This document shows, piece after piece, positions 36,708 to 37,371 of a stretch of 64,000 nucleotides of DNA. A program made the translations under genes and the position numbers. Position 1 is the first letter of the stretch, and each line of letters starts with the position of its first letter. This DNA comes from Escherichia coli (GTDB lineage: Bacteria > Pseudomonadota > Gammaproteobacteria > Enterobacterales > Enterobacteriaceae). The stretch lies in the NCBI RefSeq assembly GCF_030013205.1, contig NZ_CP122648.1; one strand, given 5' to 3'. The notes below the pieces were generated by a model. It was not told where the DNA came from and searched no databases. It worked only from the letters and a program-made list of their open reading frames with translations.

Positions 36708-37269
36708 AATGCCGTCCCTTAAAAATAGTTTAAACCATCAAAAATACATTACTTATTACGAAGTAATGGTAACCAAAGCAGCAATAAATAATTTATAAGA
36801 ATCATGATTGACATTTATAACCCAGTAAGCCTAGCGTGACAAATATCTTAATCAGATAATAATAATCCGAAAAGCACAGCGCCTTTCGAATTATCCGGAA
36901 TCACATTAAGTGAAAATTATTAAATTGATATCATTTATCATATCTGTGGATATTATGATAAACAATCAACAAAGATTTTATTTTTGATTTATAGCATATC
37001 CCTCTAAGAATTTTTGCGATGCTGCAATATCCGGGTAAAGACCCGATCCTGGCTGACAAATGGCACGACTTGACGATAAGCGGTGAACATCGCTTTTGTT
37101 GATTTACTTAACGCTACGGTCAAACGCTGGGAAGCCAGTGCATCAGGTAACGATTCGAAATTCGCCGTCGTTCTTATTCGTGGCTTGCGGTCGGTTGCGG
37201 CAATCCACAGTGGCTGTGGTCATGCAGTCAAGCCAGCGGTCAGATTTCGACCGTGGTTAACATTTAAGG

Positions 37270-37298
37270 CATAAAAAAGGCCATCATACGATGGCCAA
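37270..37298 (-). terminator. Intrinsic terminator of the sdh-suc transcript
   Basis: Stem ggccatc / gatggcc with loop atac; on the - strand followed by ttttttat. Confidence 0.7.
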
Positions 37299-37371
37299 CC
37301 ATGTCGAAACCGACAGCCCTTCGCCATTCCTGTAGAGGGAAGCGGCGAGGGCTATTTCTTATTACAGATAT
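37271..37371 (-). ncRNA. sdhX: sucD 3'UTR, candidate SdhX (RybD) sRNA
   Basis: 101-nt interval between the sucD stop and the terminator U-run; SdhX is known to be processed from this 3'UTR; the sRNA sequence itself was not recalled for comparison. Confidence 0.45.

Follow-up and report, generated by a model that had tools for sequence, protein, structure and literature searches.

Comparative analysis of an Escherichia coli chromosomal stretch (hereafter the window; 64,000 nt of contig NZ_CP122648.1, assembly GCF_030013205.1) revealed that the already known sRNA SdhX is retained downstream of sucD, and that the 63-aa ORF ending next to its terminator is a chance reading frame across a composite deletion scar. 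Built on the observed homologies, junctions, sharing among strains and SdhX identity, our reading is that a scar (36978-37272/74) and a conserved SdhX stand side by side, the scar very probably being non-functional debris of an rtcB gene and a lyase gene. The original prediction had considered the ORF a possible relic of mngR.

SdhX and its terminator are retained next to sucD

The features identified on the sucD side were the following:

37372..38241, minus strand: sucD, succinate--CoA ligase alpha subunit, the final gene of the sdhCDAB-sucABCD operon (ORF list and RefSeq annotation of CFSAN018748)
37273..37371, minus strand: sucD 3′UTR, the SdhX (RybD) sRNA, 99 of 99 bases identical to K-12
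37298..37308, minus strand: SdhX seed UUCGACAUGGU, core CGACAU, read from the sequence, directly 5′ of the terminator stem
37273..37296, minus strand: Rho-independent terminator of the operon and SdhX, stem 37296-37290/37285-37279, 4-nt loop, U6 (terminator scan and fold)

The stop codon of sucD occupies positions 37372-37374. The CFSAN018748 genome was identical to the window over 36700-37400 (701 bases, 100% identity), and at least the sucD-proximal part of the region was matched in 5425 of the 5426 complete E. coli genomes. For comparison with the sucD-mngR interval of K-12, positions 37259-37374 were taken as their reverse complement. The identity began right behind the sucD stop and extended through the final U of the terminator, and the very next base diverged. 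SdhX measures 99 nt to the end of the U6 tract, or 101 nt when 37271-37272 are counted, and the previously noted 101-nt interval (37271-37371), the coordinates of the 63-aa ORF and the location of its stop 4 nt before the stem were all reproduced. SdhX occurs in two forms, of ~101 nt and ~38 nt, according to a review (PMC9438474), in which De Mets et al. 2019 is cited as a further source on this RNA. The sequence UUCGACAUGGU is the SdhX seed described by Miyakoshi et al. 2019 (PMC6393394), and it pairs with the start region of ackA. The E. coli experiments of that study included mutations at C34 and G62, and both bases were present here at the expected numbering, so that the E. coli-type variable region for katG and fdoG pairing was retained. 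The RNA encoded here thus resembles the published SdhX in its site after the sucD stop, its seed, its C34 region and its terminator, and its proposed conservation was confirmed by the identity to K-12, the presence of the published seed and the documented ~101-nt form. When the whole of 37040-37371 was compared with the K-12 sucD-mngR interval and the published SdhX, the SdhX part agreed and the ORF part did not. The RNA is no different from that of K-12, and beyond the U tract an rtcB remnant replaces the 3′ end of mngR.

The predicted fold of the 101-nt SdhX had a z-score of −4.67, with the terminal hairpin present in the MFE structure. Read on the plus strand, the hairpin is GGCCATC-ATAC-GATGGCC, with stem arms at 37279-37285 and 37290-37296 (a 7-bp stem with 5 GC pairs), and the A6 tract at 37273-37278 corresponds to U6 on the sucD strand. 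The scan gave no plus-strand intrinsic terminator at 37279-37296, where the hairpin is followed by AACCATG and not by a T tract. The hairpin had been described as bidirectional, but the intrinsic-terminator pattern was found to fit the minus strand only. A scan of 36000-38500 against Rfam 15 at E ≤ 1 returned no family match, most likely owing to the absence of a usable SdhX model, as the K-12 sequence is identical; the SdhX assignment was therefore made via K-12 identity and the literature. Judging from this identity, SdhX is expected to be expressed and processed in this strain, as an Hfq-dependent RNA that RNase E would cut from the sdh-suc operon transcript and whose 3′ end would be formed by the Rho-independent terminator. 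Hfq binding and RNase E cleavage to the ~101-nt and ~38-nt species are likewise predicted here, and the seed would allow SdhX to repress ackA and other mRNAs.

The 63-aa ORF covers fragments of rtcB and a lyase gene

The scar (36978-37274) contained four remaining pieces, two of a lyase gene on the minus strand and two of rtcB on the plus strand. They are listed here with the adjoining elements:

35802..36707, minus strand: LysR-family regulator of the methylaspartate island, an intact 301-aa ORF with Pfam HTH_1 and LysR_substrate matches
36708..36977, no strand: spacer separating the LysR and lyase genes, colinear with the full-length island (CLSC36 and TCM3e1 annotation)
36978..37114, minus strand: lyase 3′-terminal fragment, aa ~511-556 and stop, CLSC36 11938-12075 (tblastn E = 1e-16)
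37110..37170, minus strand: lyase internal fragment, HAL/PAL/TAL-family aa 378-397 (tblastn E = 2e-8)
37174..37230, plus strand: rtcB internal fragment, aa ~376-394 (tblastn match to aa 376-398), YSWLAVGCGNP.WLWSCS
37233..37274, plus strand: rtcB 3′ end, 42 nt including the TAA stop, encoding RtcB PAVRFRPWLTFKA and stop; 39/42 to CLSC36 21803-21844
37083..37274, plus strand: 63-aa ORF, GTG start, TAA stop ending 4 nt before the terminator stem

The pieces were delimited by blastn of the window against CLSC36 (locus L005, to which all CLSC36 coordinates refer), which gave four blocks, all of them colinear:

Block 1, window 36601-37114, CLSC36 11561-12075, 88.9% identity: LysR 5′ end, spacer and the 3′-terminal 138 nt of the lyase gene
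Block 2, window 37110-37170, CLSC36 12419-12479, 86.9% identity: lyase internal piece, 61 nt
Block 3, window 37174-37230, CLSC36 21571-21627, 91% identity: rtcB internal piece, 57 nt
Block 4, window 37233-37400, CLSC36 21803-21970, 97.6% identity: rtcB last 42 nt, SdhX and sucD

The 3′ piece of rtcB was recovered by tblastn as RtcB aa 451-466 with the stop included (E = 1e-6), and the RtcB CDS of TCM3e1 ends at the same stop codon as the 63-aa ORF. In addition, a third class of genomes matched the window from 37233 on, and the gene annotated there as 'RtcB family protein' also ends at the ORF stop. The internal rtcB fragment was detected by tblastn in frame +1 (E = 8e-13), the 63-aa ORF being in frame +2. 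The parent protein is a full-length member of the RtcB family (PF01139 match, 6.7e-95), encoded by an island paralog distinct from the gene of the K-12 rtcBA locus. Compared with this family, the relic retains the last 13 codons with the stop and ~19 internal codons. Only ~99 of 1398 nt are left, in two frames, and with more than 90% of the gene gone the remnant cannot encode the ligase.

A sensitive search with 37040-37274 matched its left half to genes annotated as 'HAL/PAL/TAL family ammonia-lyase', and the parent lyase protein matched Lyase_aromatic (PF00221, 4e-123). With ~66 of 556 codons left, the lyase remnant is not functional. In the window its 3′ fragment additionally carries a 1-nt deletion in a G run near 37033, causing a frameshift that was absent from the four other strains aligned. 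The full-length lyase of the long island (L005 11938-13608 and L008 22281-23951, both minus strand) has a hydrophobic, signal-peptide-like N-terminus (MKGLIRRVTVTVVLWSVCSIAMAKS) and reads GSIGAADIM at the expected position of the MIO motif. Canonical histidine ammonia-lyases carry the MIO-forming motif GS(V)GASGDL. The protein may thus not be a standard HutH, despite being encoded together with hutG, hutI and hutU. The neighbouring LysR regulator, intact in the window, was annotated as frameshifted in the near-identical CFSAN018748 (L004 35803-36707).

The composition of the 63-aa ORF follows from these fragments. Codons 1-29 are antisense to the lyase pieces, codons ~31-48 (~18 codons) read the internal rtcB fragment in the wrong frame, and the true RtcB frame is limited to the last ~13-15 codons. 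A Pfam scan of the ORF product returned no match. In the window, 213 ORFs reach 63 aa or more, 99 of them being 63-100 aa long, and the near-identical record has 43 annotated features (36 CDS and 7 tRNA genes) in its first ~37.8 kb; the presence of a 63-aa ORF is therefore not above chance. The reading frame is uninterrupted in the window, ST69 and HS4, and is shifted by an extra C in O157:H7 and ET350, where it encodes 61 aa with a different C-terminus.

The long island and the deletions

The region between cydA and sucD (22.9-37.3 kb of the window) corresponds to the glutamate-fermentation (methylaspartate) cluster of O157:H7 (PMC4682846), the LysR-type regulator gene being the last intact gene of the cluster in the window. 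In TCM3e1, the full long form lies between cydA and sucD. Its order is two hypothetical genes, glmS, glmL, glmE, mal, an AtuA-family gene, a DUF4387 gene, a symporter gene, a class I fumarase gene and cobO, followed by the LysR gene (minus strand), a HAL-like lyase gene, hutG, hutI, hutD, a permease gene and hutU (all minus strand), and finally rtcB (plus strand) and sucD (minus strand). The class I fumarase of the island is the FumD mesaconase of Kronen & Berg 2015 (PMC4682846). The passages of that paper covered here mention neither the hut-rtcB extension nor its remnant, and the words 'sucD' and 'histidine' do not occur in them. CLSC36 has the same gene order as TCM3e1, with rtcB already split. 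A complete 768-bp IS1 copy with 23-nt terminal inverted repeats was found within the island of the window (31007-31774; InsA 31062..31337, InsB frame 31256..31759), flanked by the 8-bp target duplication ACTGATTG (30999-31006 and 31775-31782). The AtuA-family gene carries it in its 3′ portion, close to the DUF4387 gene on the upstream side, so the downstream genes of the island may be subject to polar effects here. This copy is missing from CLSC36 and, judging by its gene coordinates, from CFSAN018748 as well.

In the CLSC36 reference, the gaps between the four blocks measured 343 bp, ~9.09 kb and 175 bp. The ancestor of the scar would have been a long methylaspartate island in which a convergent rtcB ended 4 nt from the stem of the sucD terminator. 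One deletion (~343-348 bp, in frame) would have occurred within the lyase gene, a second (~9.1 kb) would have joined the lyase gene to rtcB, and a third (~175 bp) would have fallen inside rtcB. Together, the three would have taken away the hut-like genes and nearly the whole of rtcB, leaving the four fragments. The number and order of these events are reconstructed from the surviving pieces, and the third junction (J3) may represent either one event or two. The first junction (J1) contained a microhomology of ~5-6 nt (TAAYGC) and J3 may involve a CCAGCG direct repeat, which is no more than suggestive of microhomology behind these deletions; the second junction (J2) lacked microhomology and had 3 unmatched bases. 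Internal pieces of two genes, kept in their order, can only come after the genes themselves, which leaves a change from the long form to the scar as the only sensible polarity, and we infer this direction. In comparison with the cluster of Kronen & Berg 2015 (PMC4682846), the short O157-type island would have arisen from a longer one by deletion. The ORF had also been proposed to mark a deletion/insertion junction. A deletion scar is indeed present, but it resulted from deletions within the island, and the junction between island and core genome is the A/U tract of the terminator itself.

Distribution of the scar and of alternative alleles

The scar was found as a single contiguous match in ~832 of 5426 complete E. 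coli genomes (~15%). Its three junctions were exactly common to all five sequences aligned, i.e., the window, ST69 O15:H18, O157:H7, HS4 and ET350. The same junctions in five strains, together with ~832 carriers, are most simply read as a single origin followed by spread. In the same set, mngR was present in 3884 genomes (72%) and a near-full rtcB in 290, with ~290 genomes carrying the long island including the hut-like genes and rtcB; in at least one further allele, a gene for a TPR protein stands alone between cydA and sucD. All the alleles seen shared an identical SdhX and diverged right past the U tract, which places the sucD-side boundary of the variable locus at the SdhX terminator. The cydA-sucD interval (window 22926-37272; loci L002, L006 and L008) appeared as a multi-allelic hotspot in E. 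coli.

The island RtcB paralog was also searched against the GTDB species-representative genomes, yielding eight loci. One belonged to a metagenome-assembled genome labelled Citrobacter sp., which was E. coli-like (~98.8% identical over 11.4 kb), and another came from a cryptic Escherichia sp., on a short contig where rtcB has no sucD next to it. The six remaining rtcB homologues were 57-63% identical and derived from Betaproteobacteria, Gilliamella and Snodgrassella. In the cryptic species (Escherichia sp. MOD1-EC7003, L010, 4.2-kb contig), rtcB was 92% identical to the E. coli paralog and was preceded by a LysR/spacer segment (75% identical), with no hut genes between. The 57-nt rtcB fragment of the window matched MOD1-EC7003 at 55/57 and CLSC36 at 52/57 positions, too few sites for significance. 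In CLSC36, rtcB (20448-21844) was annotated as a partial pseudogene and a shorter CDS, and in SCU-172 only 43% of the rtcB gene matched. The island rtcB paralog thus seems to decay repeatedly and independently.

The scar is most likely non-functional

The available evidence indicates that the scar is most likely non-functional pseudogene debris, the lack of function being deduced from the following observations. The identity of the fragments to full-length E. coli alleles did not go beyond 87-91%. The remainder of the island was ~98% identical between the window and CLSC36, and the lower value in the fragments fits unconstrained drift. PGAP left the scar region unannotated in most genomes. The minus-strand lyase remnant is open in ST69, where, as in a few genomes, PGAP called an 84-aa hypothetical protein, and it is cut short by a stop codon in the other four aligned strains (the window, O157:H7, HS4 and ET350). 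In the promoter and terminator scan, promoter-like sites occurred at the background rate (2 found versus 1.9 expected). A weak plus-strand hairpin with a T run (37078-37095) inside the lyase remnant was likewise at chance level (2 found versus 1.2 expected).

Among the other explanations, we regard the preservation of the fragments by selection for a non-coding role as very improbable. The candidate roles would be an aid to SdhX termination or 3′-end stability from the 42 nt adjoining the A tract, and LysR control sites near the lyase gene. Of the fragments, the rtcB 3′ end is indeed the one best conserved (39/42 to CLSC36) and directly borders the terminator, and the spacer between the LysR and lyase genes keeps its colinearity in every form. 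However, the K-12-, TPR- and rtcB-type alleles are unrelated past the U tract while their SdhX is identical, hence the bases beyond 37272 are not needed. Moreover, the differences among the strains with the scar are concentrated in precisely this 42-nt stretch.

It is very unlikely that the 63-aa ORF, or the antisense 84-aa ORF of ST69, represents a genuine small-protein gene of chimeric make-up that arose from the scar. The plus-strand frame is uninterrupted in three of the aligned sequences and the minus-strand hypothetical protein is annotated by PGAP in some genomes, but the former has a frameshifted C-terminus in the other two (O157:H7 and ET350), and the latter meets a premature stop in 4/5 strains, together with the additional frameshift in the window. 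The absence of a Pfam match, an ORF size at chance frequency and promoter-like sites at background also argue against a gene. A comparably slight chance is left to an active scar, with either a plus-strand RNA antisense to SdhX or the 63-aa ORF as a newly born small protein. The antisense transcript would start in the AT-rich, LysR-proximal spacer and cross the rtcB remnant into the hairpin; if real, it would alter SdhX dosage in ~15% of E. coli, O157:H7 included.

The interpretation of the ORF as an mngR remnant, left by an island replacing mngRAB, is extremely improbable. MngR (FarR), a GntR/UTRA repressor, is encoded at the same structural spot, by a convergent gene ending before the sucD terminator in K-12 and in the mngR-positive genomes counted above, and the TAA at 37265-37267 corresponds to the position of the mngR stop. 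However, this TAA does not share the reading frame of the 63-aa ORF, and upstream of ~37265 there was no DNA or protein similarity to mngR. In the DNA alignment, homology to K-12 began only at ~37265-37273, with none upstream. A tblastn search with K-12 MngR against 36500-37400 gave a best E of 0.21, on the wrong strand, and MngR and the window ORF have no sequence relationship. At 93-98% identity, the rtcB 3′ end accounts for these bases. The suggested relic of a gene once converging on sucD is therefore upheld as to its 3′ end, and the gene was rtcB; the mngR identity is rejected, as 37083-37274 lacks similarity to mngR and derives from rtcB and the lyase gene. Finally, the opposite polarity, with the short form ancestral and the hut-rtcB segment gained later, has practically no standing: nothing speaks for it directly apart from the somewhat divergent fragments (87-91% to extant full-length alleles), and non-contiguous, ordered pieces on the correct strands cannot precede intact genes, nor do the GTDB representatives favour it, their close rtcB relatives being those of Escherichia sp. 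and the E. coli-like genome labelled Citrobacter sp.

Implications

The reading as rtcB and lyase debris beside a conserved SdhX describes ordinary genome decay adjoining a known sRNA, and is of minor importance on its own. An assignment at the annotation level is corrected, as the relic derives from rtcB and a HAL-like lyase gene and not from mngR. For the biology of the locus, SdhX is invariant whatever stands beyond its terminator, and the methylaspartate island of the O157:H7 type would be a shortened derivative of an island that carried hut-like genes and a second RtcB paralog. The boundary of the cydA-sucD hotspot coincides with the SdhX terminator and could serve as a clean lineage marker, illustrating a 3′UTR sRNA that limits where rearrangements can end.
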